This document shows, in pieces, positions 1,727-25,795 of a DNA stretch of 28,217 nucleotides (within the stretch, counting starts at the first letter, position 1; each line of letters begins with the position of its first letter). The DNA lies in assembly GCA_039679545.1 (NCBI GenBank), contig JBDKUT010000045.1:1-28217 (forward strand). Reading direction: 5' to 3'. The position numbers were made by a program, and so were the translations under genes. Origin of the DNA: Thermotogota bacterium (GTDB lineage: Bacteria; Bipolaricaulota; Bipolaricaulia; UBA7950; UBA9294). Under the pieces are notes generated by a model. The model saw only the letters and a program-made list of their open reading frames with translations, was not told the origin of the DNA and searched no databases.

Positions 1727-1731
1727 AGCTC

Positions 1732-3877: not shown

Positions 3878-4058
3878 GTAGCGAGTGGCCTGTGGCTCGT
3901 GGATTGTGGGAACTGCGTCCTGTCAGTGCTTCTCCTACGTGCCACAAACCACGTGCTACCAGCCGCCTTTCACAACCCAACGAACCGAATGAACTGGGCA
4001 CCGCGCACTGCGAACCAGTCGACGAACCTAGACGAGCGCGTCGAACTGCGCACCATGA
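3878..4058. repeat. Inverted 7-mer arms plus 9-mer/7-mer tracts
   Basis: TAGCGAG TGGCCTG TGGCTCG TGGATTG TGG versus CCACAAA CCACGTG CTACCAG CCGC; then CCCAACGAACCGAATGAAC. Confidence 0.6.
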
Positions 4059-4083
4059 CGCTTGAGCACTAAAGCGTTATAAT
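4055..4083 (+). promoter_or_regulatory. Promoter with embedded operator for TA module 2
   Basis: ATGACG-17 nt-TATAAT; inverted repeat ACGCTT(4058-63)...AAGCGT(4072-77). Confidence 0.6.
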
Positions 4084-4101
4084 GCCTCCCGGTGATCCGT
4101 G

Positions 4102-4326
4102 ATGACGAAGCGAGCGACGATCTACTTGGAGCCGGAGCTCCACACCGCGCTCAAGGTGAAGGCGGCCCATACCGAGCGATCGATGTCAGAACTCGTGAAC
4201 GAGGCAGTGCGCGAATCCCTTCGCGAGGACCAAGAGGATCTCCAGGCGTTTGCCGACCGCGCTGCCGAGCCGACGATGTCGTACGAAGCCCTCCTCGCCG
4301 ACCTCAAGGCGCATGGCAAGATATAG
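4102..4326 (+). CDS. CopG/RHH antitoxin
   Basis: KRATIYLEPELHTALKVKAAHTERSMSELVNEAVR is an RHH pattern; overlaps the downstream toxin. Confidence 0.85.
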   Translation: MTKRATIYLEPELHTALKVKAAHTERSMSELVNEAVRESLREDQEDLQAFADRAAEPTMSYEALLADLKAHGKI

Positions 4327-4573
4327 ACTCGAGATCAAGAAGAGCGTAGCCAAGGATCTACGCGGCATACCCCAAAAACACGTTGCGCGGATTCTGAAAC
4401 GGATTGCGGCATTGGCTGACGAGCCCCGAGGGCCCGATTCCGAGAAGCTGTCCAGCCGAGAGCTCTACCGAGTGCGACAAGGCAGCTACCGGATCCTCTA
4501 CGAGATCCGAGATGCTAACCACGTCGTTGTGGTCGTCAAGGTCGCCCATCGGTCCAAAGCCTACGGCTCGTAG
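4313..4573 (+). CDS. relE: RelE/StbE family mRNA interferase toxin
   Basis: MARYRLEIKKSVAKDL...EKLS...YRVRQGSYRILYEI...VVVKVAHR. Confidence 0.88.
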   Translation: MARYRLEIKKSVAKDLRGIPQKHVARILKRIAALADEPRGPDSEKLSSRELYRVRQGSYRILYEIRDANHVVVVVKVAHRSKAYGS

Positions 4574-4678
4574 ATGAGCTACTCGATTTCTCTGAGTTCG
4601 TTGAGTCCAGCAACCGGGTGGATAAGCCTCGAGTTGCCTTTCGGGACTCAAAGAACCCAACGAACTGGCCTCGGTCCA

Positions 4679-4750
4679 GGAGTTCCGCATCCGCCCTTTG
4701 CCTGCGGAACTCCCGAGCTGTCGGTCAACGCAGATCGACCGACAGCCACG
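4679..4750. repeat. Double-hairpin REP-like element (family A), copy 1
   Basis: GGAGTTCCGCA/TGCGGAACTCC stem, CGA linker, GCTGTCGGTC-10 nt-GACCGACAGC stem; 4703-4750 is identical to 8839-8886. Confidence 0.85.
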
Positions 4751-4881
4751 GACTGCGCACTGCGCACCCAACGAACCCGACGAATGCATCCCCACATGCC
4801 ACGAGCCGCCTCTCGTGAGCCAACGAACTCAACGAACGGCCCCTTGGCAACCGCCCTAACTTCCTCCATCCTTGTCACGTG

Positions 4882-6195
4882 ATGAAAGGCTTGAGCCGCT
4901 CCACTACGTGCACACTGAGGGGCAGATTGCCGATCGCCGCCACGATAGCGGTTGCCACCGTCCTCGCAGCCGGCGGATGCTTCCTCTTTCCCAACACCCT
5001 CCCAATCGCGGAGATCGACGCCGATCCCACGATGGGGATTGCGCCGCTCACCGTCGAGTTCGATGCCGGTGAATCCTACGATCCCGACGGCACGATCCGG
5101 CGGTACGAGTGGGATTTCGGCGACGGACACGAAGGCGCCGGAGTGCGGATCGACCACACCTACACGGCCGCCGGAGAGTACGAGGCCACCCTCACCGTAG
5201 TCGACAAGCGCGGAGGCCGGGCGACCGGCTCCGTCGAGATCGCCGTGCGCGGAGCGAACGAGCTACCTGTCGCCGCGTTCTCGGCGTACCCGTCTCCCGC
5301 CTATCCGCGGCAGACCGTCCGCTTTAACGCCGGCGCGTCCTACGACCCCGACGGGGAGATCGAGTCGTATGCGTGGAGCTACGGAGACGGCTCGACCGGC
5401 ACCGGTGCATCCGCATTCCACCAGTACGCCTCCGTAGGCTCCTACACCGTCACCCTCACAATTCGCGACAACGACAACGGCGAGAGGACCGCGACCACTA
5501 CAATCACCATCGTGACGACCATCGACACCTCCGGGACCGTGTCGCGGCACTACGAGTGGGAGTACGGCGGGCAGGATGAGAGCTGCGACCTCGAGATCTC
5601 GCTCGACCTCTACCGGTACTACAAGTCCCAGCCGCGCACCGCGTTCGTGAACAGAGACTACGACGAGTACGTCCTCGACCCGCTCGACGACGACGACCTC
5701 GAAGTCATCACCCAGGAGATCCTGAGCGGCGCGGGCGGCGACTACCACGCCCAGCTCGAGAACGCCCTCTTCTTCGTCCAGCACTGCGTCGAGTACGTCA
5801 ACGACCCGTACTGGTACGAGTACCCCCGCTACCCCATCGAGGTGCTCGTCGACCTGATCGGCGACTGCGAAGACACCGCCATCCTCTATACCAGCCTCGT
5901 CCGCACCCTCGGCCACGGAGCCCTCATGGTCGCCGTAGACACCAGCGGCGACGGCGTCGCCGACCACATGATCGCGTGGGTTCCCGTCGAGCAGAGCTTC
6001 ATCACCGCGCATCCCGACCGCAGCTTCTGGGACTACCACGGCAAGGTGTACGCCTTCGCCGAGACCGCCGTCGAAGGCGGCTACGTCCCCCTCGGCGTCG
6101 ACCCGTGGGGCCTGACGGCGGAAGACATCGACACTGTGTACGACGTGTCCAGTATCGACAGGGCTCCGCGAGCCCTGCTATTGCGAGGGCCGTAG
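4882..6195 (+). CDS. Lipoprotein with two PKD domains and a C-terminal transglutaminase-like (Cys-His) domain
   Basis: Lipobox LAAGGC; SYDPDG..YEWDFGDG and SYDPDG..YAWSYGDG PKD repeats; YPRYPIEVLVDLIGDCEDTAIL...HMIAW; start codon uncertain. Confidence 0.8.
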   Translation: MKGLSRSTTCTLRGRLPIAATIAVATVLAAGGCFLFPNTLPIAEIDADPTMGIAPLTVEFDAGESYDPDGTIRRYEWDFGDGHEGAGVRIDHTYTAAGEYEATLTVVDKRGGRATGSVEIAVRGANELPVAAFSAYPSPAYPRQTVRFNAGASYDPDGEIESYAWSYGDGSTGTGASAFHQYASVGSYTVTLTIRDNDNGERTATTTITIVTTIDTSGTVSRHYEWEYGGQDESCDLEISLDLYRYYKSQPRTAFVNRDYDEYVLDPLDDDDLEVITQEILSGAGGDYHAQLENALFFVQHCVEYVNDPYWYEYPRYPIEVLVDLIGDCEDTAILYTSLVRTLGHGALMVAVDTSGDGVADHMIAWVPVEQSFITAHPDRSFWDYHGKVYAFAETAVEGGYVPLGVDPWGLTAEDIDTVYDVSSIDRAPRALLLRGP

Positions 6196-6426
6196 TTGAG
6201 GAGATGAAGAGCGCTGTTGAGGCGCAGAGAAGCCGGAACCAGTTGTGGACCTGCTCATTGGCGGCTTGGCGCGACGCATTCGCCCAATACCGGCGTCCAC
6301 CGCACGCCGAAGGCCACACGGTCTACCCTCAGGGTCGTCCCTTGACGCAGCGGGCTGCCCCCCGAGTGAGAGACGCAGTCGCATCCATGCTTACTGCGTG
6401 GGCTCAACCCGATGGACACTCGGGGC

Positions 6427-7569
6427 CTACGGCCTCGGGATGAGTTGCGCTGGCTCCTCAAGGATTGCCAGTAGGTCAGTCGCGCAGTACGCGCGATCGC
6501 GCTGGCGGCCGTCGACCGGAGACAGGATGTTCTTGTCCACGAGGATGGAAATAGCGCGCGCCGCCGTCGTTCGCGCCACGCCCAGACGGTCTGCCACGTG
6601 CTTGGCGGTGACAAAGGGGTTCCCCGCAAGAAGATCGACGACTCGTGCGGGCGCGTCCGACCTCACTCCGCGTAGGTCCGCATGCCACTCGAGAACCAGG
6701 TCGCGCATGCGAGCCGCGCGGTCGACAGCGTCTTCCGACTGCCGCGCGACGCCGTTCAGGAAATAGACGAGCCAGTTCGCCCAGTCGGCCGCGCTCGTCA
6801 CCTCGCGCAGGCGGGTGTAGTAGTCGGAGCGGGTCGCCTCGAAGAACGCGCTTAGGTAGAGGAGTGGAGATGGGAGAACCCTGCTGTCTACGAGAAAGAG
6901 GCTGACGAGCAGCCGGCCGACGCGACCGTTCCCATCGAGGAACGGGTGAATCGCCTCAAACTGAACGTGCGCAAGCGCGGCCTGAACGAGTGGAGGGAGC
7001 GAACGATCCTGCAAGAACCGTTCCAAGTCGCGCAAGAGCGCAGGGACACGTGCGGGCGGCGGCGGAACGTACACTGCCGTATGCGGGGTCGAACCGGGAA
7101 GGCCGATCCAGTTCTGGATCGTGCGTACCTTCCCTGGTTGGGCGTGGCCGCCGCGCACCTCGCGCATCAGGAGAGCGTGGACTTCCTTCAGGAGCGAGAC
7201 GGAGAGGCCAAGAGCCGGCAACCGATCGATCCCGTGCTCAAGGGCGGCGACGTAGTTCGCGACCTCGCGCAGGTCTTCGGGACTCCGGTCGACGATCGCG
7301 CCAGCCTCCGCAGCGAGCAGCTCACCCAGCGTAGCCCGCGTGCCCTCGATTCGACTGGAGAGCACGGCCTCTCGCGCAACAAAGGGACGCATGAGGATGT
7401 GCGGATTCGGCAGTCCGCGGCCCTCGCCTGCGAGCCGCCCGATGGCCCGATCTGCGTCCGACATCGCGTGCACGATCTCCCTCGTCCACTCGAGAGTCGG
7501 CGGCAACGGGTTCGGGACGAAAGCCGAGTACCCTTCTTGGCTCTTGATCCACTCCCCTGGCTGAGGCAC
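6427..7569 (-). CDS. fic: Fic family AMPylase with N-terminal inhibitory motif and C-terminal HTH
   Basis: HPFLDGNGRVGR catalytic motif; SSRIEG matches (S/T)xxxE(G/N); C-terminal TAKHVADRLGVARTTA; GTG7569 follows GGAGGAG. Confidence 0.9.
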   Translation of the reverse strand: MPQPGEWIKSQEGYSAFVPNPLPPTLEWTREIVHAMSDADRAIGRLAGEGRGLPNPHILMRPFVAREAVLSSRIEGTRATLGELLAAEAGAIVDRSPEDLREVANYVAALEHGIDRLPALGLSVSLLKEVHALLMREVRGGHAQPGKVRTIQNWIGLPGSTPHTAVYVPPPPARVPALLRDLERFLQDRSLPPLVQAALAHVQFEAIHPFLDGNGRVGRLLVSLFLVDSRVLPSPLLYLSAFFEATRSDYYTRLREVTSAADWANWLVYFLNGVARQSEDAVDRAARMRDLVLEWHADLRGVRSDAPARVVDLLAGNPFVTAKHVADRLGVARTTAARAISILVDKNILSPVDGRQRDRAYCATDLLAILEEPAQLIPRP

Positions 7570-7585
7570 GTCTCCTCCCGTCGCT

Positions 7586-7729
7586 ATGAGCGTAAAGATA
7601 GAATAGCGCACATAACGTTCGATGCCAATGAGCGCACCCCCGTGCTCGACGCATCATAATGAGCGATGAAGGCCGAATGCGCTCATAACGTCCTCGCCCT
7701 GTGAGCGGAACCCGCCGCATTCCGTTCAC
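7586..7729. promoter_or_regulatory. Array of four operator-like inverted repeats upstream of fic
   Basis: RTGAGCG-N14/15-CGYWCAY-like boxes starting at 7586, 7628 (degenerate), 7659 and 7701. Confidence 0.6.
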
Positions 7730-7807
7730 GCGGCCCTGTTTCCCACATGCCGCCTCTCGTAACCCAACGAACTGCCCAGCCGACCAGGAGAAGCCAGCCC
7801 CACACAA

Positions 7808-7920
7808 GGAGTTCGGCGACGTGTCGCGGACACCGACCGAACTCCCGAGCTGCTCGAAAACCTGAGAGATCGAGCAGCCCAACTCCCCGAGCTACTCAGC
7901 ACCGCAGCCCGCTGAGTAGC
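7808..7920. repeat. Family A hairpin cluster, copy 2 (three hairpins)
   Basis: GGAGTTCGG/CCGAACTCC; GCTGCTCGA-12-TCGAGCAGC; GCTACTCAGC-10-GCTGAGTAGC. Confidence 0.85.
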
Positions 7921-8018
7921 CACGAACCCAACGAACTCAACGAACTCAACGAATCGGCCAGCCTCCGAGCCACGCACCGCGAACCGCGAACCGCGCACTC
8001 CGAGCCCAACGAACCCAA
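7921..8018. repeat. 9-mer then 7-mer tandem tracts
   Basis: CACGAACCC AACGAACTC AACGAACTC AACGAA; CGAGCCA CGCACCG CGAACCG CGAACCG CGCACTC CGAGCCC. Confidence 0.8.
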
Positions 8019-8088
8019 GTGACTCGCGCGCACACCGGGAACGCTATAATCCTTCAAGCTCGTTCGGCATGGGCGGAGCGGAGGCGCG

Positions 8089-8328
8089 ATGAAGTTCTAT
8101 TCATTCCAGATCGTCATCGAGAAAGAGAAGGACGATCCAGGCTACTACGCCTACAGCCCAGCTCTTCCCGGGTGCTTCAGCAACGGAAAGACCGTCGAAG
8201 AGGCGAAGCGGAACATCCGTGAGGCGATTGAGCTGCACATCCAATCCCTCCTAGCGCACGACCAAGACGTTCCGCAAACCGGTCAGCTCGTCCACGTCGA
8301 AGAGCTCACCGTCGGCGTCCCAGAATGA
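8089..8328 (+). CDS. hicB: HicB family antitoxin (short form, no DNA-binding domain)
   Basis: YYAYSPALPGCFSNGKTVEEAKRNIREAIELHI; TATAAT at 8045-8050 upstream. Confidence 0.9.
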   Translation: MKFYSFQIVIEKEKDDPGYYAYSPALPGCFSNGKTVEEAKRNIREAIELHIQSLLAHDQDVPQTGQLVHVEELTVGVPE

Positions 8329-8552
8329 CCCGAGCGCCGCAGATCACCGCTCGGGAGCTTCTCGCATTCCTCAAGAGGAAAGGCTTCGTCGAAGAGAGAC
8401 GCTCCGGCTCGCATCTCACGCTCCGGCACCCAAACAGCGGCAAGACCGTCACTCTGCCGGTGCACACCGGCTGCGATCTCGGCCGAGGACCTGCCGTACG
8501 AGTCCTGCGGGACGCCGGGTTCTCGCTGGACGACTACCTCGCTGCCCGCTGA
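8325..8552 (+). CDS. hicA: HicA family toxin
   Basis: GFVEERRSGSHLTLRH...TVTLPVH dsRBD-like HicA motif; ATGA overlap with hicB. Confidence 0.9.
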   Translation: MTRAPQITARELLAFLKRKGFVEERRSGSHLTLRHPNSGKTVTLPVHTGCDLGRGPAVRVLRDAGFSLDDYLAAR

Positions 8553-8626
8553 TCCGCCCCGCGCACCCCGTCCACGGACCTGGAGTTGCCTCCTTGAGTC
8601 GTCGCCTCCGGCGCAGTCCCACCCAA

Positions 8627-8886
8627 GGGGTTCGGTAACGTGTCGCGAAGGCCGTCCGAACTCCCGAGCTGCTCGAGAACCCAGGACATCGAGCAGCCCA
8701 CCTCCCCGAGCCGTCGGTTCCGTGAGAAGAAGCAGCCGAAGCAGCGGCTGCTTCCAAGCTGCTCAGACCGGGCGTTGCCGAGCAGCCATCGACTCGACAG
8801 CCACGGACACCTTCCAGGAGTTCCGCGACCAGTACAGGTGCGGAACTCCCGAGCTGTCGGTCAACGCAGATCGACCGACAGCCACG
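8627..8886. repeat. Family A hairpin cluster, copies 3 and 4 (BIME-like mosaic)
   Basis: Stems at 8627-8664, 8668-8697, 8729-8754, 8758-8786, 8817-8849 and 8853-8882. Confidence 0.85.
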
Positions 8887-8924
8887 CACTCCGCGCCGCC
8901 GCCTCTCTCCCACTTTCCCCACTG

Positions 8925-9017: not shown

Positions 9018-11870
9018 ATGACCACCCCTGAGCAACGCGCCCGCGAAGTGATCGACAAGAAGCTCGCCGAGTCCGGCTGGGTTGTGCAGAGCCGGGACGA
9101 GATCAATCTCTCCGCCGGGCCGGGCGTCGCGGTGCGTGAGTTCGTTCTCGAACCTGGTCACGGCCACGCGGACTACCTTCTCTTCGTCGACGGGAAGGCT
9201 GTCGGAGCGCTCGAAGCGAAGCCTGAGGGGTATCCCTTGACGAGCGTCGAGGGGCAGGGTGCGAAGTACACGGCGGGCCTTCCGTACTCGATCTCGGCGT
9301 CCGCGCCGGTGAGCCCGCTGCCGTTCGTCTATCTCAGCACCGGGAGCGAGACGAAGTTCGCGAACGGCCTTGATCCCGAGCCACGCAGCCGGAGCATCTT
9401 CCAGTTCCATCGCCCTGAGACTCTTCGCGCCTGGGTCGAAGCCGACACGCTGCCCCAGTGGATCCACGACTGGCATCCTGAGACGGGCGAGTACGCCCAC
9501 AACCCGAAGCGCCCATCCTCCCTGCGCGCACGCCTGCAGGCGATGCCGCCCGTCCTGCGCGGCAGCCTCTACGACAACCAGTTCCGCGCCGTCGCGAACC
9601 TAGAGAAGTCGCTCCGCGAGGATCGGCCGCGCTCGCTCATCCAGATGGCCACCGGCTCCGGCAAGACGATCATGGCGATCACGTCCATCTACCGCCTGAT
9701 CAAGTACGCCGGCGCCTCGCGCGTCCTCTTCCTCGTCGACCGCAAGAACCTCGGCGAGCAGGCCGAGAAGGAGTTCGGGAACTACCGCACGCCCGACGAC
9801 CACCGCAAGTTCACCGAGCTGTACAACGTCCAACGGCTCCAGTCGAACACCATCGGCGCGTCGAGCAAGGTCGTCATCTCGACCATCCAGCGCCTCTACT
9901 CGATGCTCCAGGGAGAGGCCGAACTCGATCCCGCGCTCGAGGAGGAGTCGCTGTGGGAAAAGGACGGCGCGCTGTCGAAAGAAGCGCTGCCCGTCGTCTA
10001 CAACCCGGCCATCCCGCCTGAGCACTTCGACGTCATCTTCGTCGACGAGTGCCACCGCTCGATCTACTCCTTGTGGCGCCAGGTACTCGACTACTTCGAC
10101 GCCTACCTCGTCGGCCTCACCGCCACGCCCGCCGCGCACACCTACGGCTTCTTCCAGCGGAACCTCGTGATGGAGTACAGCCACGAGGAGGCCGTCGCCG
10201 ACAACGTCAACGTCGACTTCGAGGTCTACAACATCCGCACCCGGATCACGAAAGAAGGCGCGACCATCCGGCCCGGCGACTACCAACTCGGCATCCGCGA
10301 TCGGCAGACCCGCCGCGTACGTTGGGAGCGGCCCGACGAGCCCCTGACCTACAGCGCCAACGACCTCGACCGAGCCGTCGTCGCCGAGGACCAACTCCGG
10401 ACGATCATCAGGACCTTCCGCGACAAGCTGCCCACCGAGATCTTCCCCGGCCGACGCGAGGTGCCGAAGACGCTCATCTTCGCCAAGGACGACTCGCACG
10501 CCGAGGACATCGTCAAGATCGTGCGCGAGGAGTTCGGCAAGGGAAACGACTTCTGCCAGAAGATCACGTACAAGTCGACGGACAAGAAGCCGTCCGACCT
10601 CATCCAGGAGTTCCGCGTGAGCTACAACCCGCGCATTGCCGTGACCGTCGACATGATCGCGACCGGCACCGACATCAAGCCGATCGAGATCGTCATGTTC
10701 ATGCGCAGCGTCCAGAGCCGCGTCCACTTCGAGCAGATGAAAGGCCGCGGCGTGCGTGTCGTCGACCAAACGACGCTCCAGGGCGTGACGCCCGAGGCGC
10801 AAGCGAAGACGCACTTCGTCATCGTCGACTGCGTCGGCGTCACCGAGGGACCGCTCTCCGACACCCAGCCGCTCGAACGCAAGAAGACGATCTCGTTCGA
10901 CGCGCTGCTCGAGCACGTCGCTCTCGGCGGAACCGATCCGGACTACCTGTCGTCGCTCGCCGCCCGCCTCGCGCGGCTCGACCGCCAGTGCGGCGACGAA
11001 GAGAAGAAGCGGATCAGCGATGCGGCCGGCGGCACGAGGCTGGCCGACATCGTCCACGGTATCGTCCGTGCCCTCGATCCCGACGAGCAGGCGGCCGTGG
11101 CCCGCATCGCGCAGAGCCTGCCCGAGGACGTCGAACCGAAGCCTGCTGACGTGGACGCTGCAGCGAAGACGCTGCTCATGGAGGCGGCGGCGCCGCTTGC
11201 GACGAAGCCCGCGCTACGGCAGCTCCTGATCGCGACGAAGCGGTCGTTCGAGCAGATCATCGACGACGTCAGCCTTGACGAGCTTCTCGAGGCCGGCACC
11301 TCCGAAGAAGCGCGCGACAAGGCGCGCGCTCTTGTGCGCTCCTTTGAGCAGTTCCTCGCCGAGAAGAAGGGCGAGATTGAGGCGCTTGAGTTCTTCTACT
11401 CGCAGCCGTACAAGAGGCGGATCTCGTTCGCCGACATCAAGGCCTTGCACGCGGCGATCAAGGCGCCGCCGCGGCTCCTGACGCCGGAGCGGCTGTGGGC
11501 GGCCTACAAGCTCCTCGAGCAGAACAAGGTGCGTGGCGCGAGCAGCCAGCGGAAGCTGGCCGACATCGTCTCGCTCGTGCGGTTCGCCCTGCACCAAGAA
11601 CCAGAGCTGGTTCCCTACGCAGACGGTGTACAGGTTCGCTTCGAGCATTGGATGGCGACGCAGGAGTTGGGCGGGCGGTCGTTCACCGTCGAGCAGCGGC
11701 GGTGGTTGGAGATGATTCGCGATCACATTGCGCAGAGTCTTGAGATCACGCCCGACGACTTCGGCTACGCTCCGTTCGTTGAGGAGGGCGGTCTGGGCAA
11801 GGCACGACAGGTTCTGGGCCCGGATCTCACGAAGCTGATGGATGAGCTGAATGGAGCGCTCGTCTCATGA
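9018..11870 (+). CDS. hsdR: Type I restriction enzyme R subunit (EcoEI/EcoAI-like)
   Basis: ADYLLFVDGKAVGALEAK nuclease motif, QMATGSGKT, DECHRS, LTATP, MIATGTD, QMKGRG, and an EcoEI-type C-terminus. Confidence 0.95.
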   Translation: MTTPEQRAREVIDKKLAESGWVVQSRDEINLSAGPGVAVREFVLEPGHGHADYLLFVDGKAVGALEAKPEGYPLTSVEGQGAKYTAGLPYSISASAPVSPLPFVYLSTGSETKFANGLDPEPRSRSIFQFHRPETLRAWVEADTLPQWIHDWHPETGEYAHNPKRPSSLRARLQAMPPVLRGSLYDNQFRAVANLEKSLREDRPRSLIQMATGSGKTIMAITSIYRLIKYAGASRVLFLVDRKNLGEQAEKEFGNYRTPDDHRKFTELYNVQRLQSNTIGASSKVVISTIQRLYSMLQGEAELDPALEEESLWEKDGALSKEALPVVYNPAIPPEHFDVIFVDECHRSIYSLWRQVLDYFDAYLVGLTATPAAHTYGFFQRNLVMEYSHEEAVADNVNVDFEVYNIRTRITKEGATIRPGDYQLGIRDRQTRRVRWERPDEPLTYSANDLDRAVVAEDQLRTIIRTFRDKLPTEIFPGRREVPKTLIFAKDDSHAEDIVKIVREEFGKGNDFCQKITYKSTDKKPSDLIQEFRVSYNPRIAVTVDMIATGTDIKPIEIVMFMRSVQSRVHFEQMKGRGVRVVDQTTLQGVTPEAQAKTHFVIVDCVGVTEGPLSDTQPLERKKTISFDALLEHVALGGTDPDYLSSLAARLARLDRQCGDEEKKRISDAAGGTRLADIVHGIVRALDPDEQAAVARIAQSLPEDVEPKPADVDAAAKTLLMEAAAPLATKPALRQLLIATKRSFEQIIDDVSLDELLEAGTSEEARDKARALVRSFEQFLAEKKGEIEALEFFYSQPYKRRISFADIKALHAAIKAPPRLLTPERLWAAYKLLEQNKVRGASSQRKLADIVSLVRFALHQEPELVPYADGVQVRFEHWMATQELGGRSFTVEQRRWLEMIRDHIAQSLEITPDDFGYAPFVEEGGLGKARQVLGPDLTKLMDELNGALVS

Positions 11871-13925: not shown

Positions 13926-13934
13926 TGGAGGCGA

Positions 13935-19041: not shown

Positions 19042-19101
19042 GAGATCGGGGGACGCGTACCTCAACTCAGCCGAGGTGGGGGAGTTGAGGTATGTGTCCC
19101 C
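19042..19101. repeat. REP-like palindrome (family B), copy 1
   Basis: GAGATCG + GGGGACGCGTACCTCAACTC-13 nt-GAGTTGAGGTATGTGTCCCC (20-bp stem with two G-T pairs). Confidence 0.8.
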
Positions 19102-19191
19102 GCCGCGGGCGGCACGCCGCGAGGGTCTGGTCCTGTATTCCGGTAGTCGAGCACCGCTGTCGCCGATGACGGGCGTGTGGCGAGGGCGTGC

Positions 19192-19268
19192 GGCACGCAC
19201 GAAACACCTGTCAGGTTCGCTAGCTTGTCTGCGAGGGGAACCAGCGCCAGCCGGAGCCCTCGGACGCA
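19192..19268 (-). repeat. Orphan copy of the MBL-hydrolase gene 3' end
   Basis: 19226-19268 is identical (43 nt) to 21079-21121; GGCACGCAC and CCTGTCAG are also shared. Confidence 0.8.
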
Positions 19269-19413
19269 GTATCGGATTGTGCAAGGCGCAGATCGGGTCA
19301 TGTCCCTGCGGGCACGGCGGGGGCGGAACTGCCGAATGCGTCGACCGTTGCGTGGGCGGCTGCAGGGGCCGGCAGATGCTTTCGGAGACGTGAGAGGCGC
19401 AGGGATTGATCGC

Positions 19414-19506
19414 GCGTATCCGATAGGATACGCCTCGCTCCGTGATCGGGATTCGCCAGACCGACGAGTTCGAGTCTTGGTTCGAGGGCCTATGCGACGA
19501 GACGGC
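19414..19506 (+). pseudogene. Operator plus 5' remnant of an addiction-module killer (RelE/HigB-like) gene
   Basis: GCGTATCC-GATA-GGATACGC then VIGIRQTDEFESWFEGLCD, paralleling 20290-20380 (IEVRQPDEFELWFESLRD). Confidence 0.7.
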
Positions 19507-19645
19507 TGGGTCCTGGGATTCAACCTTGGAGCCCAGCAGTCTGCTGTTGTCAGGGATAGGCGTCTGCGCCGGCGCTCCAACGAAGCGATTGGCCTTGCGC
19601 GCCAACGCGGGCTATACTCTGGCTATCCGGCGGGAGGTGACGCCT

Positions 19646-19894
19646 ATGCTCACGAAGGTTCAGAAGTGGGGCAACAGCCAGGGCTTGCGCCTCAGCAAGG
19701 ACGTGTTGGCGGACGCGGACCTGGCGGTGGGCGACGCGGTCGAGGTCGCGGCGCGCGAAGGGGCGATCGTGATCACTCCCGCACGTCGGGTGCGCGGGCG
19801 ACACAGCCTTGCCGCCCTCGTCAAGGAACTGCCTTCGCACTACAAGGTCGGGGAGTTCGACTGGGGAGCTCCTGCGGGCCGCGAGGTGTGGTAG
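19646..19894 (+). CDS. mazE: AbrB/MazE antitoxin
   Basis: MLTKVQKWGNSQGLRL...EFDWGAPAGREVW; RBS GGAGG; TATACT at 19613-19618. Confidence 0.92.
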   Translation: MLTKVQKWGNSQGLRLSKDVLADADLAVGDAVEVAAREGAIVITPARRVRGRHSLAALVKELPSHYKVGEFDWGAPAGREVW

Positions 19895-20230
19895 ATGGCC
19901 GAGTACACCCCGCGTCGGGGCGACTTCGTCGCCGTCGGCTTCGATCCGCGGACCGGCCACGAGCAGAGCGGGCGGCGCCCGGCGCTCGTCGTGAGCCACG
20001 ACCTGTTCAACCGCAAGACCGGACTCGCCTTCGTCTGTCCGGTGACCAGCACGCATCGCGGATACCCGTTCCACGTGGCGATCCCCGAGGGTAGCGCCGT
20101 GACAGGGTTCGTCATGGTCGAGCAAATGCGGACCATTGACTACCGCGCGAGACAGGCGAAGCGAATCGGGACGGCTCCGGAGGCCGTGCTCGAAGAGGCT
20201 CTGGCGCTTCTCGACGCGTGCCTCTTCTAG
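19895..20230 (+). CDS. mazF: MazF/PemK endoribonuclease toxin
   Basis: YTPRRGD...FDPRTGHEQSGRRPALVVS...CPVTS...YPFHV...EQMRTIDY. Confidence 0.93.
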   Translation: MAEYTPRRGDFVAVGFDPRTGHEQSGRRPALVVSHDLFNRKTGLAFVCPVTSTHRGYPFHVAIPEGSAVTGFVMVEQMRTIDYRARQAKRIGTAPEAVLEEALALLDACLF

Positions 20231-20314
20231 TTTGTCCCACTCCGCGCCTACCGCGGAGGCTGCCGGGAGGAACGCTCTCGCTGTGGCGGTGTATCCGTTG
20301 GGATACATTCCCCT

Positions 20315-20612
20315 GCAATCGAGGTCCGTCAGCCCGACGAGTTCGAGTTGTGGTTCGAGAGCCTGCGCGATCGCGAGGCGCGGTTCCGCATCCTCGCCCG
20401 GATTCGTCGACTCTCTCGGCAATCCCGGGGACGTTGAGCCCGTCGGTGAGGATGTCTCCGAACTGCGGATCCCCTATGGGCCGGGATATCGGATCTACTA
20501 GAGACAGCAGGGCGACGCGACGATCGTGTTGCTCGCAGGCGGCGACAAGTCAAGCCAGAAGGGTGACATCGAGCGGGCGAAGGAGCTCGCGCGGGGTCTC
20601 TCTATGGAGGTG
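20315..20612 (+). pseudogene. Pseudogene of an addiction-module killer toxin (RelE/HigB-like)
   Basis: IEVRQPDEFELWFESLRDREARFRILARIRRLS / frameshift in CTCTCTC near 20411-17 / LGNPGDVEPVGEDVSELRIPYGPGYRIY* (TAG 20499-501) RQQGDATIVLLAGGDKSSQKGDIERAK; no canonical start at the expected position; operator TGTATCC-GTTG-GGATACA at 20290-20307. Confidence 0.85.
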
Positions 20613-20616
20613 CATC

Positions 20617-20907
20617 ATGCCCGAGATGAAGACGAACACCCGGCAGTGGGATCCGGCACGATACCTCGAAAGCGTTGAAGACATCGTTGCGTACCTCGAT
20701 GCTGCGCTCGAAGAAGACGATCCAGCGCTGCTGTCGGCCGCTCTCGGCGATGTAGCTCGAGCCAAGGGAATGTCCGAGATCGCGCGCCTGACCGGGCTTG
20801 GACGCGAAAGCCTCTACAAGGCGCTCTCGACAGAAGGCAACCCGGAGTTCGGGACGATCCTCAAGGTCGTGCGGGCACTCGGGTTGAAGCTTCGCGTGAC
20901 CACGTAG
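20617..20907 (+). CDS. Addiction-module antidote protein (HTH antitoxin)
   Basis: WDPARYLESVEDIVAYLDAA...ALGDVARAKGMSEIARLTGLGRESLYKALSTEGNPEFGTILKV; RBS GGAGG. Confidence 0.92.
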   Translation: MPEMKTNTRQWDPARYLESVEDIVAYLDAALEEDDPALLSAALGDVARAKGMSEIARLTGLGRESLYKALSTEGNPEFGTILKVVRALGLKLRVTT

Positions 20908-21038
20908 CCCGTGCGGTGCGGGAATTCCGGGGACACGATGCCATTCCCGCTGCTCGTGGCGGGCGCTCTTAGGACGCGATCCCGAACTCGCCGATCTGCA
21001 CGCTGCAGACTCGGGTCATGTCCCAGGGGATGGGCGCG

Positions 21039-21180
21039 AGGCACGCACTAGCTGATGCGCCTGTCAGTTCCTCGGGCCTGTCTGCGAGGGGAACCAGCGC
21101 CAGCCGGAGCCCTCGGACGCAATGCGCCCCAAGCCCGGGAACGGCGCATGCGAGAGGAAGACGAGGGCGCCGCTCCGCGC
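21039..21180 (-). repeat. 142-bp displaced duplicate of the MBL-hydrolase gene 3' end and its flank
   Basis: Direct repeat of 21997-22138 with 5 mismatches counted by eye; encodes ARSGALVFLSHAPFPGLG...GPRN*. Confidence 0.92.
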
Positions 21181-21253
21181 AGGTTTGGTCATTCGTTCCA
21201 GCACTGGGACCAAGCGATTCCTACGACTGCGGCCAGCCGCCCGCGTCCTGGGT

Positions 21254-21568
21254 CTACGCAACCGTAAGGGGCTTGATGGCCTCGATGTCGTCGCGGATCG
21301 CCTGCGCGGTATCCCACAGATCGACCGCGCGCTGGGCGTTGAGCCAGAACTCGGGGGAGTTCCGGAAGAGCCTCGACAGACGCAGCGCCATCTCCGGACT
21401 CACGGCTCGGCGCTCACGCAAGAGCTCGTTCACGGTCTGCCGCGACACGCCGAGCGCGTCCGCCAAGCCGGCCACGGTGAGCCCGTAGTCGGGAAGGAAG
21501 TCCTCGCGGATCATCTCGCCCGGGTGGATCGGCCGCACTTCCCTCTTGCCCGTGCTCTTGATGCTCAT
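21254..21568 (-). CDS. higA: HigA family antitoxin
   Basis: PIHPGEMIREDFL...LADALGVSRQTVNELLRERRAVSPEMALRL...PEFWLNAQ. Confidence 0.93.
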   Translation of the reverse strand: MSIKSTGKREVRPIHPGEMIREDFLPDYGLTVAGLADALGVSRQTVNELLRERRAVSPEMALRLSRLFRNSPEFWLNAQRAVDLWDTAQAIRDDIEAIKPLTVA

Positions 21569-21581
21569 AGCTCACCTCGCC

Positions 21582-21863
21582 TCAGTGGTAGTCCGTGATC
21601 TCGACGTCGAAGGCATCTCCATCTTCGAATCGGAAGCAGATGCGCCACTGGTTGTTGATCGCGATGCCGTACTGGCCTTCTCGGTCCCCCACAAGCTTGT
21701 GCAGTCGGTTTCCCGGCGGCACCCTCAGGTCGCCGATCCGGCTCGCAAGGTCGATGTACTCAACCTTTCGCCTTGCCCGCCGCGTGATCTCCGGCGGCAA
21801 GCGGCTCGATCGCCCCGTCACGTAGAGCTCTTGAGTGTGCCGGTCCGCGAACGCCTTGATCAC
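21582..21863 (-). CDS. higB: HigB toxin (plasmid-maintenance killer family)
   Basis: VIKAFADRHTQELY...DLRVPPGNRLHKLVGDREGQYGIAINNQWRICFRF...VEITDYH. Confidence 0.92.
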   Translation of the reverse strand: MIKAFADRHTQELYVTGRSSRLPPEITRRARRKVEYIDLASRIGDLRVPPGNRLHKLVGDREGQYGIAINNQWRICFRFEDGDAFDVEITDYH

Positions 21864-21869
21864 AGATGC

Positions 21870-21898
21870 AGTGTAACGCGTAACGTGACGCATGACAA
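21870..21898 (-). promoter_or_regulatory. higBA promoter, leaderless geometry
   Basis: Minus strand TTGTCA-17 nt-TACACT-6 nt-GTG. Confidence 0.7.
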
Positions 21899-21902
21899 GA
21901 GC

Positions 21903-21963
21903 GAGATCGGGGGGACACGTACTTTGACTCGGCCGAGGCGAGGGAGTTGAGGTACACGTCCCC
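21903..21963. repeat. REP-like palindrome (family B), copy 2
   Basis: GAGATCGG GGGGACACGTACTTTGACTC-13 nt-GAGTTGAGGTACACGTCCCC; downstream GCCGCGG..GCGGCACGCCGC is shared with copy 1. Confidence 0.8.
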
Positions 21964-22021
21964 GCCGCGGATGGCCGCCGCGAGCGGCACGCCGCAAGGC
22001 ACGCACTAGCTGATGCGCCTG

Positions 22022-22873
22022 TCAGTTCCTCGGGCCTGTCCGCGCGGGGAACCAGCGCCAGCCGGAGCCTTCGGACGCGATGTGCCCCAAGCCCGGGAAC
22101 GGCGCATGCGAGAGGAAGACGAGGGCGCCGCTCCGCGCCGCTCGGTCGAACAGTCGGCGCCGCGTGTCCCGGATTCTCTCCTGCGAGGAGTCGTACCCCG
22201 TCCTCCAGGTTGGGTGCTCGACGACGATGGGGTGGAGCACGGTGTCTGCCAGGTGGAGGAGGGTCTCGCCCCTCGAAACGAACTCGACGGCCGTGTGCCC
22301 CAGACGATGGCCGGGTGCAGGGAGAGTCCGCACTCCGGTGACGACCTCGGTCTCGTCGCGCGTGAAGAGGACGCGCCCCTCCAAGAGGCGGGCGAGCGTG
22401 CGGTAGGCCTCGGCATCCGTTGGCGAGCACATGGCCAAGATTCGCTCGGACCTGTATCCGGCCCAGGCTTCTTCCGCCATCACGTGGCGCGCGTTGGGGA
22501 ACGCCAAGCCCCCGTCTGGCGCGATGACGCCTCCGGCGTGGTCGAGGTCGAGGTGGGTGAGGATGACGTACGCGACGCGGTCCGGCTCGACGCCGGCCTG
22601 TCGGAGGGTCAGCAGGAATCGACTCTCGAGTTGATCGGTGCACGGCCCCCAGCCGGGATCGATGACGATCGCGTCGTCTCCGGCGCGAACGAAGAGCCCG
22701 AGGAAGTCGTACGACATCTCCTCCGTCGACCAGCCACGGAGAGCGAGCGCCTCTCGCACTTGAGGGTCGTCGACGTCCGGGAGGAGTTCCCTCACGTGGA
22801 ACCGCTCCGAGGCGTCTCGTATCGCGACGCAGTCGAGGTCCCCGACGCGGAATCGGTAAGCGCTCTCAGTCAT
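22022..22873 (-). CDS. MBL-fold metallo-hydrolase
   Basis: VIDPG, LTHLDLDHAGG, PAPGHRLGH, LADTV, SHAPFPGLG; RBS AAGGAG. Confidence 0.9.
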   Translation of the reverse strand: MTESAYRFRVGDLDCVAIRDASERFHVRELLPDVDDPQVREALALRGWSTEEMSYDFLGLFVRAGDDAIVIDPGWGPCTDQLESRFLLTLRQAGVEPDRVAYVILTHLDLDHAGGVIAPDGGLAFPNARHVMAEEAWAGYRSERILAMCSPTDAEAYRTLARLLEGRVLFTRDETEVVTGVRTLPAPGHRLGHTAVEFVSRGETLLHLADTVLHPIVVEHPTWRTGYDSSQERIRDTRRRLFDRAARSGALVFLSHAPFPGLGHIASEGSGWRWFPARTGPRN

Positions 22874-23108
22874 GTCGCTCCTTGTGGCGGGATCGAGCGA
22901 CCGGCTCTCTCCGCCTAGGCGGCACTCGGTCGTGCGCCTGGATCGGTCGTCGGGTCACAGGCTATCTGCGTCGGTCGCTTCGTTCCCACGCCTTCCATCA
23001 GGATGCGGATGACCGTCGCGCCTTCGTCTCCCTCCTGCATTGGCCGCATCGGGAAGAGCGGCAGCGAGAGCTGCTACCCGAGTCGAGCATCAGACCGCGG
23101 CGGCGCGG

Positions 23109-23441
23109 CTACGGCAGGAACATCTCGTTCAAGATCCGCAACGCGCTCTCGAGCGCCTGGCTGGACAGCTTCCCGAGCTCCCGAATGAGACGTTCGCGAT
23201 CCACGGTGCGGATCTGGTCGAGGACGATCTGCCCTTGCTTGCCCTGGAACTGACAGGCCACCCGGAACGGGTACGAACGCGATGCTGTGGTTAGCGGTGC
23301 CACGATGCACGTCTCGAGGTGGGAGTTGAGCTCGTCGGGGGAGATCACGACACACGGGCGGGTCTTTCGGATCTCACGCCCAATGGTTGGATCGAGGCAG
23401 ACAAGGTAGACGTGGCCGCGCTGCGCGGTCACCACGTCCAC
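23109..23441 (-). CDS. PemK/MazF family toxin
   Basis: RGHVYLVCLDPTIGREIRKTRPCVVISPDELN...APLTT...LDQIRTVD. Confidence 0.92.
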   Translation of the reverse strand: MDVVTAQRGHVYLVCLDPTIGREIRKTRPCVVISPDELNSHLETCIVAPLTTASRSYPFRVACQFQGKQGQIVLDQIRTVDRERLIRELGKLSSQALESALRILNEMFLP

Positions 23442-23677
23442 TCCTCGACGTCAAAGCGCGTGGGCACATCGCCGTCGAGCGCCTTGCCCTCGCCTCGTTT
23501 CTGCATCTCTCGCGCCGCGTCGGCCCAGCCACTACGAGGTGGCCTCATCGGCGTGATGATCAGTCGGCCCTCGTGAACGTCGAGCTCGGCCTCCTCGACC
23601 AGCCCCACATGGTCGAGGATCGCCTTCGGCAGGCGAATGCCTCTCGAATTGCCGATCTTGATGAGCTTTGTCTTCAT
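23429..23677 (-). CDS. AbrB/MazE family antitoxin
   Basis: MKTKLIKIGNSRGIRLPK...PRSGW...FDVEEWTW; RBS GGAGG. Confidence 0.92.
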   Translation of the reverse strand: MKTKLIKIGNSRGIRLPKAILDHVGLVEEAELDVHEGRLIITPMRPPRSGWADAAREMQKRGEGKALDGDVPTRFDVEEWTW

Positions 23678-23697
23678 CGCACCCTCCGCGTAGGTAC

Positions 23698-23726
23698 ATC
23701 GTAATTACGGCGATCGCGCCAGTCAA
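23698..23726 (-). promoter_or_regulatory. Promoter and operator of the AbrB-PemK module
   Basis: Minus strand TTGACT-17 nt-TACGAT; palindrome CGTAATTACG (23700-23709) overlaps the -10. Confidence 0.65.
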
Positions 23727-23890
23727 GACGGGCCGCGCGTAGGGCCGGGCACGGGTGCCTCGCCATGAGTGGTCGTGGTCTCGGGGGCCGTCGTTTGTCC
23801 TCGCGAGCTGGGTGCAGGCGGCCGCCCGCTATGAGCCGGAGGAGTAGACTGGGGTGGGCCAGGCGCGACCGGTGCGTGAGAGGGAGGACG

Positions 23891-24571
23891 ATGAAAGGGC
23901 AGGGATTCGAGACAGATAGGTTGAGCACGTCGGAGGGCGACCTCGAGATCACGTTCCTGGGTCACGGCTCGCTCCTCTTTCGCCACAGACAGAAGATTGT
24001 GTACGTCGACCCGTTCAGCCGGGTGGCCGACTACTCGAAGCTGCCGAAGGCGGATGTAATCTTCATCACACACGAGCACCGCGATCACCTCGACCCGGGC
24101 GCGTTGGCCGCGATCCGCACGAAGACGACGAGCGTGGTCCACACGGTTCTGTGCGAGGGCGCGATCGCCGGCGGGCTGGCGATGCGCAACGGCGACGTGA
24201 CGGCCGTGCAGGGGATCGGCGTTGAGGCGATCCCGGCCTACAACCTGGTCCACCAGCGGGAGTCGGGCGACCCGTTCCACCACTGCGGCGACGGGAACGG
24301 TTACATCCTCACGTTCGGCGGCCTGCGCGTGCTCGTCGCCGGCGACACGGAGAACACGCCGGAGCTGAAAGCGCTGCGCGACATCGATGTGGCCTTTCTG
24401 CCGATGAACCTGCCCTACACGATGACGCCGGAGATGGTCGCCGACGCGGCGCTCGCCATTCGGCCGAAGATCCTCTACCCGTACCACTTCGGCGACACCG
24501 ACCCGTCGCGCCTCGCCCAGCTCCTCTGCGACCACCCCGAGATCGAGGTCCGCATCCGCCGCCTCGCCTGA
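23891..24571 (+). CDS. MBL-fold metal-dependent hydrolase (beta-lactamase-superfamily)
   Basis: ITFLGHGS, YVDPF, ITHEHRDH, AGDTE, LPMNLPYTM, YPYHFG; RBS GGGAGG. Confidence 0.9.
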   Translation: MKGQGFETDRLSTSEGDLEITFLGHGSLLFRHRQKIVYVDPFSRVADYSKLPKADVIFITHEHRDHLDPGALAAIRTKTTSVVHTVLCEGAIAGGLAMRNGDVTAVQGIGVEAIPAYNLVHQRESGDPFHHCGDGNGYILTFGGLRVLVAGDTENTPELKALRDIDVAFLPMNLPYTMTPEMVADAALAIRPKILYPYHFGDTDPSRLAQLLCDHPEIEVRIRRLA

Positions 24572-24658
24572 GATCGGGGGACACGTACCCTATCTCCGCC
24601 GTCGCAAGTCCGGAGACACGTACCAGAACTCCTGCGTGGAGTTGAGGTCCACCTCCCC
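24570..24658. repeat. REP-like palindrome (family B), copy 3 (composite, two left arms)
   Basis: GAGATCGGGGGACACGTACC...GGAGACACGTACC...GGAGTTGAGGT..TCCCC; overlaps the upstream stop codon. Confidence 0.7.
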
Positions 24659-24674
24659 GACGGAAGGCAGCCCC

Positions 24675-24723
24675 TTCACTATCGTTCCCATATCGGGTAC
24701 GATCGTTCCCATAATGGGAACGA
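24675..24723 (+). promoter_or_regulatory. Promoter with tandem 21-bp operators
   Basis: TTCACT-17-TACGAT; TCGTTCCC-5-GGGTACGA followed immediately by TCGTTCCC-5-GGGAACGA. Confidence 0.7.
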
Positions 24724-25322
24724 ATGATGACACTGACTCCCGCGGACTTGCCGGAGCGCTCTTCACGCCGGTACAGCAGCGGGTGCTCGGCCTCCTGTTC
24801 GGTCAGCCCAGTCGCCGCTTTCAGAGTGCGGAGTTGATCCGTCTTGCACAGGGGGGAACCGGCGCCGTGCATCGCCAGCTTGCTCGCCTCGAAGCCTCCG
24901 GTTGGGTGACGGTCACTCGGATTGGGAACCAGAAGCACTACCAGGCGAACGCCGAGTCTCCCGCGTTCGAGGAGTTGCGCGGACTCATCGCCAAGACGGT
25001 CGGTCTCGCAGAGCCGCTCCGGCGTGCGCTGGAACCTCTTGCAGGCCAGATCCACGCGGCCTTCGTCTACGGCTCGGTCGCCAAGGGGACGGACAAGGCG
25101 ACGAGCGACATCGATCTTCTCGTAGTGTCCGATCGGCTCGGCCATCCCGACCTCTTCGCCGCGCTCCAGGCAGTCGAGAGGGAGCTGGGACGGCCGGTGA
25201 GTCCGAACGTGATGACCCTCCGCGACTGGCGTACGAAGAGTCGGCAGAAGGACTCGTTCGCGGGGCGCGTCAGCGCGCAAGCTCGGCTCTTCGTTATAGG
25301 ATCGGACGATGATCTCGCCTGA
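24714..25322 (+). CDS. wHTH plus minimal nucleotidyltransferase (MNT) antitoxin
   Basis: ALFTPVQQRVLGLLF wHTH; AFVYGSVAKGTDKATSDIDLLVV (GS...DxD). Confidence 0.88.
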   Translation: MGTNDDTDSRGLAGALFTPVQQRVLGLLFGQPSRRFQSAELIRLAQGGTGAVHRQLARLEASGWVTVTRIGNQKHYQANAESPAFEELRGLIAKTVGLAEPLRRALEPLAGQIHAAFVYGSVAKGTDKATSDIDLLVVSDRLGHPDLFAALQAVERELGRPVSPNVMTLRDWRTKSRQKDSFAGRVSAQARLFVIGSDDDLA

Positions 25323-25734
25323 ACTCGAGAACCTCGCACGTTGCGGGGTGCTGAAGCGCGAGCCGCCGGCCCGCGCGGAGTACGAAGGGCTTGTCGCGTC
25401 TGCCGCGGCGCGTCTCGCAGACGCTGCGCGTCCAGACCTGTCGCTCGAGAGCCGCTTTGACCTTGCCTACAACGCTGCGCATGCCTTGGCTCTGGCGGCG
25501 CTCCGTCGGATGGGCTATCGCTCAGACAGCCGGTACGCCGTGTTCCAGGTATTGCCCTACACCGCGGGTTTGCCCACGGCCACCTGGCGATTCCTCGCCA
25601 AGTGCCACGAGCGGCGGAACCTGGCCGAGTACGAAGGCGCCAGAAGTCTCGATGGCCGCCTGATTGATGACCTCGTTTGCGCCGCAGAGGAACTCATGAA
25701 GGCTGTGAGCGCTCTTCGCCCTCCTGGAGGGTAG
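25309..25734 (+). CDS. HEPN-like partner (toxin) of the MNT
   Basis: Overlaps the MNT gene; helical; RFDLAYNAAHALALAALRRMGYR...HERRNLAEYEG (R-x4-Y variant). Confidence 0.7.
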   Translation: MISPELENLARCGVLKREPPARAEYEGLVASAAARLADAARPDLSLESRFDLAYNAAHALALAALRRMGYRSDSRYAVFQVLPYTAGLPTATWRFLAKCHERRNLAEYEGARSLDGRLIDDLVCAAEELMKAVSALRPPGG

Positions 25735-25737
25735 GAC

Positions 25738-25795
25738 GAGATCAGGGACACGTAGCTCACTTTCACGGGACGTGGCAGCTGAGATGCACTTCCCC
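25738..25795. repeat. REP-like palindrome (family B), copy 4 (degenerate)
   Basis: GAGATCAGGGACACGTAGCTCA...GCTGAGATGCACTTCCCC between convergent genes. Confidence 0.6.

Follow-up and report, generated by a model that had tools for sequence, protein, structure and literature searches.

A Variable Hotspot With Modules Between Direct Repeats

The 28,217-nt stretch of DNA studied here (the window) is an entire contig, C45 (JBDKUT010000045.1), of the 2.35-Mb, 93.6% complete metagenome-assembled genome (MAG) of a Thermotogota bacterium placed in the Bipolaricaulota (GCA_039679545.1). It represents a variable hotspot downstream of recQ in which five small modules, all toxin-antitoxin (TA) gene pairs, lie between direct repeats; these modules, their repeats and the relation of one repeat, family B, to transposases of the TIRYT type are our subject. 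The hotspot carries an ORF6N gene, two pairs of ribbon-helix-helix (RHH) and RelE genes, a Fic gene, hicBA, a type I restriction operon with Mrr, mazEF, a killer-antidote pair, higBA, a second mazEF, and an MNT-HEPN pair led by a helix-turn-helix (HTH)-MNT gene; a second HTH-MNT gene is found at the contig end (Table 1). Gene identities were assigned through Pfam and NCBIfam profile searches, and the window was compared module by module with 40 loci of relatives. Labels such as G016:C123 denote the genome and contig of a relative, L-numbers denote loci, and the closest of these comparisons are between species (84-93% identity). The TIRYT of a congeneric genome has a 100% hit with the label Candidatus Bipolaricaulis, in line with the placement given above.

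An earlier note on this DNA had proposed that the five modules are cassettes of a single system without an integrase, each bracketed by its own pair of diverged repeats. All five pairs are present where they had been placed; global identities computed there amount to 83/98 for hicBA (BLAST E-value against the genome 1e-24), 137/142 for higBA (1e-63), 66/93 for mazEF (1e-7), 36/56 for MNT-HEPN and 26/34 for the second relE module, relBE2. The modules are likewise what they were said to be, with one reservation: neither Pfam nor NCBIfam gave a hit for the 141-aa HEPN partner, whose label therefore depends on its position beside an MntA-like gene. The repeats are not private pairs, and those at the five modules are of four unrelated kinds with no common family of recombination sites; they therefore do not constitute one new cassette system. 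No Rfam family was matched at the gathering threshold.

Comparison with the loci of relatives bore out the suggestion that this hotspot gains and loses modules. For two of the five, mazEF and MNT-HEPN, we found an empty site that retains both flanks and a single copy of the repeat; for higBA only the right flank could be matched, the relBE2 site does not have this form, and for hicBA no empty site was found. The repeats are likely scars of ordinary recombination that duplicated a short flank when a module was gained. The earlier note had not recognized the arrangement as a described system; insertion that duplicates 100-950 bp of the flank is a known outcome of ordinary recombination (PMC3240628).

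Table 1. Features of the window discussed in the text, with positions, strand and basis of assignment. TIR, terminal inverted repeat; A, CD, B, M and K designate repeat kinds and gene ends explained in the text.
Feature	Position	Strand	Basis
A-type 9-mer/7-mer patch left of relBE2, non-folding	3953..3997	+	repeat search, fold test
relBE2: RHH antitoxin and RelE/ParE toxin	4099..4573	+	Pfam/NCBIfam
CD double hairpin, copy a, no partner role	4678..4748	+	nhmmer, fold test
A-type patch right of relBE2	4797..4839	+	repeat search, fold test
CD element, copy b: three hairpins, then A-type arrays	7795..7922	+	nhmmer, fold z -7.0
hicB-hicA	8089..8552	+	Pfam/NCBIfam
CD element, copy c; same segment behind an unrelated gene in G003:C77	8614..8711	+	nhmmer, alignment
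CD element, copy d	8816..8884	+	nhmmer, fold test
B1: TIRYT TIR doublet (hairpin), opens unit 1	19043..19101	+	repeat search, fold z -5.3
M3: old captured MBL-gene 3' end, joined to killer upstream region as in G016:C123	19184..19268	+	alignment to relatives
K1: operator and 5' stub of resident (G016-like) killer gene; right end is a non-homologous joint	19394..19506	+	91/105 to G016
mazE-mazF	19647..20230	+	Pfam/NCBIfam; empty site G016:C123
K2: broken killer gene (frameshift, internal stop) and antidote; 5' part G004-like, 3' part mostly G016-like	20256..20907	+	segment alignment
B': decayed TIR arm(s), opens unit 2	20920..21020	+	aligns with intact TIR of G016:C123; right arm by eye; no fold signal
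M2: recent copy of MBL 3' end; right end joined to higA downstream flank by 5-6-nt microhomology	21035..21180	+	comparison with G016:C123
higB-higA; 99% identical to G003:C156 up to B2 foot	21254..21863	-	Pfam/NCBIfam, alignment
B2: TIR doublet, opens unit 3; outer foot is the joint with the higB promoter	21904..21970	+	alignment to relatives
M1 and intact MBL-fold gene	21993..22873	-	Pfam/NCBIfam, repeat search
Remnant of truncated gene and mazEF2	22942..23709	-	B doublet at the mazEF2 position in G005:C35
B3: single TIR and decayed doublet, at MBL2 stop codon	24570..24660	+	repeat search, alignment
HTH-MNT and putative HEPN partner	24690..25734	+	Pfam/NCBIfam; empty site in G005:C35
B4: decayed TIR doublet	25737..25793	+	identity, fold test

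Family B Is the Terminal Inverted Repeat of a Short TIRYT Transposase

The repeat that flanks MNT-HEPN, family B, is the terminal inverted repeat (TIR) of a short TIRYT, a transposase of the HUH type. A 218-aa Y1 gene in G001:C24 is enclosed by two B arms in inverted orientation, and among 16 loci examined B-type inverted ends were present on all 11 genes at 53% identity or more (11/11), with one arm degenerate in L119. The end of the repeat carries the motif GGGGWSAS, the consensus given for TIRs of this kind (PMC3733652, Di Nocera 2013; PMC6006769, Quentin 2018). The suspected tie of the repeats to a RAYT/HUH gene thus applies to family B, to which the other repeat kinds are unrelated, and the enzyme is not a RAYT proper (55.9 on the RAYT model against a cut-off of 80). 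Only B1 folds better than shuffled sequences (z -5.3), the values of the other B copies lying between -0.8 and +0.1. Short TIRYT genes occur in 20 of the 73 family genomes and in two of five congeners, once within the orthologous hotspot (G002:C1), and the exact B pattern was detected in 15/73 and 5/5 of these genomes, respectively. The only single-contig family genome (G020) has two TIR copies, too few for a test of replichore bias.

Several further observations concern the TIRs. The hotspot doublets (at 19101, 21963 and 24658 in the window, and in G005:C35) consist of a left TIR arm with its foot and a right arm that ends just after the C run, whereas complete doublets elsewhere retain both feet, a contrast that suggests strand-specific processing. 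In the neighborhood of TIRYT genes, the TIR foot itself is commonly duplicated in short tandem repeats (L091, L097, L100, L102, L112, L117, L118, L119, L123). In four genomes (L024:9524, L033:3078, L026, L032) a B-type TIR comes after the 3' end of msrAB, with differing DNA behind each; mazEF stands there in G016:C106 and a long TIRYT in G003:C117. A second, broken copy of the long TIRYT lies at G000:C7:16817-17389.

Repeats at mazEF and higBA Are Captured Gene Ends

The idea that some flanks were captured proved sound for higBA and mazEF, whose repeats are the ends of neighboring genes. The relative G016:C123 has the same left flank as the window, a single killer gene and the antidote, and no mazEF. 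In the window, a 5' stub of the killer gene (K1) precedes mazEF and a broken killer gene (K2) follows it. The promoter segment of K2 matches G004 at 56/80 positions versus 33/80 for G016, while, of the seven 80-nt segments that follow, six match G016 equally well or better (to within one base), and the premature stop in the 3' half is also present in G016. Such a mosaic would be the expected product of a crossover inside the killer gene combined with a non-homologous joint at the K1 end. The two killer 5' copies had been viewed as a recombination site; they come from different lineages and hence are not a reusable site of this kind. Two copies of different ancestry around a crossover in a shared gene were seen for mazEF only.

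At higBA, the flank corresponds to the 3' end of an MBL-fold gene (M), and three copies of this end are present in the window. M1 and M2 share a 5-nt insertion that is absent from five other copies, and at one joint, that of M2, a microhomology of 5-6 nt was seen in comparison with G016:C123. Two relatives (G001:C185 and G005:C35) have one B-M-MBL copy and different left neighbors, and the 99%-identical higBA of G003:C156 breaks at the B2 foot, 40 nt from the start codon. When the decayed arm at 20925 is counted, the window can be read as three tandem units, each of which would open with a TIR and an MBL 3' end.

At the empty site for MNT-HEPN in G005:C35, the second MBL gene (MBL2) is joined to an Ntn-like gene via one B element that is B3-like on its left and B4-like on its right side. 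The MNT-HEPN pair sits elsewhere on the same contig; it starts again at a B foot and is cut inside the HEPN gene by another type of TIR (0 nt).

Many Module Joints Coincide With TIR Ends

We counted where alignments with relatives (at least 200 bp long and at least 80% identical) end. In the right, TIR-bearing half of the window, 11/23 alignment ends fall within 10 nt of a TIR end, seven of these 11 away from a gene end; collapsed by eye, about 7/16 distinct junctions are at TIR ends. For comparison, when only the TIRs of the window are considered, the share of positions this close to a TIR end is 2.4% overall and 6.7% among intergenic and gene-end positions. In the left half, none of 10 ends lies within 10 nt of the end of an A or CD repeat, the nearest being 16 and 20 nt away. 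Conversely, 11 of the 22 TIR feet for which a homolog of the outer flank without a TIR was available break within 10 nt (12/23 before one artefact row, t92, was dropped).

TIR feet truncate coding sequences in the HEPN gene of G005:C35, at the 3' end of an ATPase-like gene, in IS110-like genes and in a TIRYT gene itself. In G016:C150, a 122-bp stub of a gene 5' end comes first, its joint coincides exactly with a TIR, and an MNT-HEPN pair and the complete gene follow; in G044:C150 a duplication of 105 bp (98% identical) surrounds a TIRtron (a TIRYT gene between its TIRs) and one gene, and tandem duplications of 80-247 bp that end at TIRs were found in G003, G004 and G050. The architecture of the window recurs independently in these relatives. 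TA modules between direct TIRs are present in G051:C3, G004:C47 and G016:C106. Across phyla, 63 of 76 TIRYT loci were examined and 51 had a TIR; 61/79 local repeats end near a TIR arm, most of them containing the TIR itself, and the few similar cases, judged by coordinates, are L256, L257, L270, L275 and L277.

Hairpins and Arrays at hicBA and relBE2 Are Dispersed Repeats

The hicBA flanks are two of 19 nhmmer hits of a dispersed hairpin family (CD) that lie on seven contigs, five of the hits being in the window. The family is present in all five congeners and in seven of 73 family genomes, and the four copies tested fold at z -2.8 to -7.0. No mover for these hairpins was found, and their genomic neighbors varied among the sites listed, the last six left out. 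The proposed bond between hicBA and its hairpins did not hold: hicBA lacks them in 3/3 relative loci (G004:C116, G044:C76, G045:C8), and CD copies stand alone elsewhere. In G047:C14 a different small gene is situated between Fic and the downstream flank.

The relBE2 flanks do not fold (z +0.29 and -1.11), and their motif has extra copies at 4626-4668 and 7741-7773. By eye, the same 9-mers surround four-helix-bundle (PF05635) genes at seven of 25 such loci in relatives; no gene of this type was found in the genome studied here, in which the A arrays are orphans. G001:C30 lacks relBE2 and keeps both flanks as well as a 57-nt remnant of the relE 3' end. Its left break is 92 nt from the first repeat, counter to the expectation that breakpoints fall at the repeats. 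We regard the CD hairpins and A arrays as dispersed repeats that probably accumulated in the same hotspot and as putative recombination sites at most.

Two CD-type hairpin units are located at the 3' end of an IS110-like transposase gene (labeled by eye) in L181 (G001:C66, about 1450-1650); compared with the homolog in L091, one of them takes up the space of some 10 nt of coding sequence, as though it had been built at the site. CD elements also adjoin a tRNA gene at an orthologous site of the genus, in one to three tandem copies (G000:C91:333-452; L164, L165, L169, L172, L174).

Further Features of the Window

All A patches, CD elements and leading B arms (620-8890 and 19043-25745) share one orientation. 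Between them, positions 9018-19005 are lower in GC and likely represent a defence island, in which the type I restriction operon alternates with other genes: one HEPN-like, one unknown (367 aa), one for an Mrr-type nuclease and one for a two-domain phosphoribosyltransferase. Three successive open reading frames (ORFs) on the minus strand at 25795-26654 have no Pfam hits and look like one gene in pieces; by eye they are Ntn-hydrolase-like, and relatives such as G004:C47 have a longer ORF there. The second HTH-MNT module (27863-28217) starts after an SBP gene, at a place where G001:C109 has a B doublet and another gene.

A Route for Module Gain and Its Alternatives

We propose, at a probability of roughly 60%, that a module is gained through a single homologous crossover together with a single non-homologous joint, a process that duplicates the anchor, and that many of the joints are made at the outer feet of TIRYT TIRs, likely by a TIRYT acting in trans. 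Incoming DNA would derive from a relative, perhaps through competence; comEC and dprA are present in the genome. RecA would recombine it within a shared gene (killer or MBL), either as a linear piece through homology-facilitated illegitimate recombination (HFIR) or as re-circularized DNA through a single crossover. The other end would be joined by microhomology, as may have happened at the M2, K1 and M3 joints, or at a TIR foot, as at the higB promoter, MBL2 and the HEPN stop codon, so that the module would come to lie between diverged resident and incoming copies of the anchor. TIR feet would be preferred joints at which the TIRYT likely nicks and transfers DNA, by analogy to TnpAREP at its repeats, and repeated rounds would give the three tandem units. 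Toxin addiction opposes the loss of modules, and it would likely counteract loss through recombination between the duplicates, which is otherwise possible.

HFIR uses 3-10 bp of microhomology at the non-homologous joint, and upon conjugation in Escherichia coli 56/60 insertions had a duplicated homologous anchor, 109-950 bp long in 14 sequenced clones, which was attributed to a single crossover of re-circularized DNA (PMC3240628). HFIR has also been invoked for the immunity arrays of the Vibrio cholerae type VI secretion system (T6SS) (PMC5361080).

A number of points weigh against our proposal. Classical HFIR usually leads to deletion, not duplication (PMC3240628). A short TIRYT matching family B was not found in this 93.6% complete MAG when that protein was used as the query; the genome has a 287-aa (long) TIRYT with a different TIR, and we found no TIRYT biochemistry in print, the two works of the searched library that use the name containing no TIRYT assay. 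At three of the window joints that made duplications (the right ends of M3, K1 and M2) there is no TIR, and a TIR arm lies near an end of only 11/48 local direct repeats in the loci, some of which contain the TIR itself. Gene ends and selection confound part of the TIR signal, because many TIR feet abut stop codons (4/11 ends); the breakpoint rows are not independent, as up to three relatives can show one and the same junction; and since the count took in the TIRs of both aligned sequences, a fair background would be about twice the 6.7%. Finally, the closest comparisons are between species and too distant to fix the order of events.

A bolder version, which we advance only tentatively, would make the TIRYT a one-ended joining enzyme that links new DNA to the outer foot of a TIR and whatever genes the TIR precedes, with RecA anchoring at the opposite end. 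On this view, orphan TIRs would be portable entry points through which TA and defence arrays are built without an integrase, leaving duplications of 60-250 bp and truncated genes, in the Bipolaricaulota and possibly in other phyla.

Alternatively, the TIRs and the other repeats might be passive: the TIRYT might only deposit small doublets behind genes, in the manner of miniature inverted-repeat transposable elements, while ordinary recombination and deletion move the modules; breakpoints would meet TIR ends since both sit at gene ends and repeats seed homologous recombination. Complete doublets without a gene do exist (G004:C147, G001:C149, G005:C81), one such doublet replacing about 19 bp at a site that is filled otherwise in G000, and the missing cognate TIRYT in this MAG, the 37/48 local direct repeats without a TIR near an end and the duplications that bracket modules without any TIR (G004:C116, G005:C11, G011:C62) all agree with it. 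We nevertheless consider this explanation unlikely, because TIR feet cut genes in mid-frame at 0-7 nt with new DNA behind them, the nearly identical higBA copy of G003:C156 breaks at the B2 foot and the TIR foot is often duplicated around TIRYT genes.

The cassette idea might be retained for family B alone: TIRYT would excise a TIR and its cargo between direct TIRs as a single-stranded circle and re-insert it at another TIR foot. This would account for the B3-like and B4-like sides of the empty site in G005:C35, for the B3-MNT combination at another site with its left joint at a TIR foot, for the common direction of the leading B arms in the window and in G005:C35 and for the TA modules between direct TIRs in the three relatives named above; moreover, E. 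coli TnpAREP cleaves and strand-transfers single-stranded DNA, and circle models have been put forward for bacterial interspersed mosaic elements (BIMEs) (PMC3333891). However, the relocated MNT-HEPN of G005 is cut short inside HEPN by a TIR of another type and hence is not a TIR-to-TIR unit, no TIR flanks three of the five modules considered here and none of 13 repeat regions contains attC boxes. Neither a circle nor an excision joint was listed for the contigs of five runs, although contigs drop rare forms, and no joint that skips a module was present among the 15 of 18 joints shown in one contig set or the 12 in the other. Taken together, these data render the cassette explanation improbable.

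That the duplications are assembly chimeras of related strains in the metagenome is a very remote prospect and already largely refuted: the window is a MAG contig that no single contig covers as a whole, but contigs of other samples bridge its main junctions, G001:C109 has the identical order MBL2-B3-MNT-HEPN-B4 over 4.2 kb and the long contigs have an even depth (about 5-9). In a second sample (X2), contigs with 0 differences cover 7785-8868, 19564-20484, 21126-21791 and 24398-25608 and thereby bridge the hicBA, mazEF-K2, M2-higA and B3-MNT joints, and a contig from another study (X5) spans 19175-19625 with eight differences and bridges the M3-K1 joint; because of these contigs, the M3, hicBA, mazEF, higBA and MNT joints are not chimeras. 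The HEPN-B4-Ntn joint is spanned without differences only in X1, possibly the source run, and also by a diverged X5 contig. Two low-depth X5 joints that involve B ends may stem from other organisms and were not counted.

Relation to Known Systems

The workings that we suggest would amount to anchored insertion in which the B repeats are TIRs of TIRtrons, the element added being TIR feet as preferred joints. TIRtrons (PMC3733652; subclass 2.1 in PMC6006769) comprise a Y1 HUH gene between inverted repeats led by GGGGWSAS, and their TIRs are dispersed as singles, dimers and clusters, which fits both family B and the second TIR type at the long TIRYT of this genome. The passages of these papers on TIRYT genes and TIR families, in contrast, give no cargo, gene truncation at TIR feet, flank duplication or activity, whereas here TIR feet coincide with the joints of TA modules. 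In a literature search that most subscription papers fell outside, we found neither a described system of this kind nor a publication in which TIRYT ends serve as joints for cargo genes. A preprint (10.1101/2020.03.09.984088) had linked subclass 2.1 genes to lanthipeptide diversification, a causal claim that was withdrawn.

As in HFIR or single-crossover insertion (PMC3240628) and the T6SS immunity arrays (PMC5361080), there is one homologous anchor and one non-homologous joint, here perhaps with microhomology as in those systems (3-10 bp), successive insertions leave gene stubs and, as in the single-crossover route, the anchor (109-950 bp there) is duplicated. The cargo differs in that it consists of small TA modules within a defence hotspot. 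The joints differ as well: where the window bears TIRs, about half of them coincide with TIR ends, which are not involved in the parts of those papers that treat these insertions.

REPtrons, in which a RAYT (TnpAREP) acts on repetitive extragenic palindromes (REPs) and BIMEs (PMC3333891), offer the parallel of an HUH enzyme acting in trans on dispersed palindromes, with strand transfer shown in vitro; in some E. coli strains hicAB has replaced a REPtron (PMC3333891). The repeats studied here are of the TIR type and the enzyme is of another class, as judged by its RAYT score, and no GTAG-type tetranucleotide was seen by eye at the hairpin foot in B or CD.

With integron cassettes and clusters of attC sites lacking integrases (CALINs) the hotspot shares tandem units of one or two genes, many TA modules and repeats on the same strand. 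It differs in having no attC boxes, no integrase above the cut-off, several unrelated repeat kinds and ragged unit ends. A search for R''/R' boxes around a palindrome of 40-135 nt, made with a simple pattern and no covariance model, yielded no box pair in 13/13 repeat regions, the best match to the integron integrase model TIGR02249 in the genome reached 77 bits against a cut-off of 265, and we rejected the integron or CALIN reading. Four other tyrosine recombinase hits are located elsewhere in the genome. Finally, four-helix-bundle genes with their inverted 7-mer/9-mer arrays share the A-type 9-mers in relatives but are missing here, where the arrays are orphans.

Implications

We know of no function that has been shown for TIRYT-type Y1 proteins. 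The question of what they do is directly testable at this locus, because the window and its relatives provide joints at the level of single bases, a cognate pair of enzyme and TIR and natural substrates. In one survey, 14.9% of the strains had TIRYT-type Y1 proteins (subclass 2.1) (PMC6006769). If true, the process proposed here would be one route for the growth of TA and defence hotspots without an integrase; should the enzyme have no role, the locus would be an ordinary but unusually legible record of anchored insertion.

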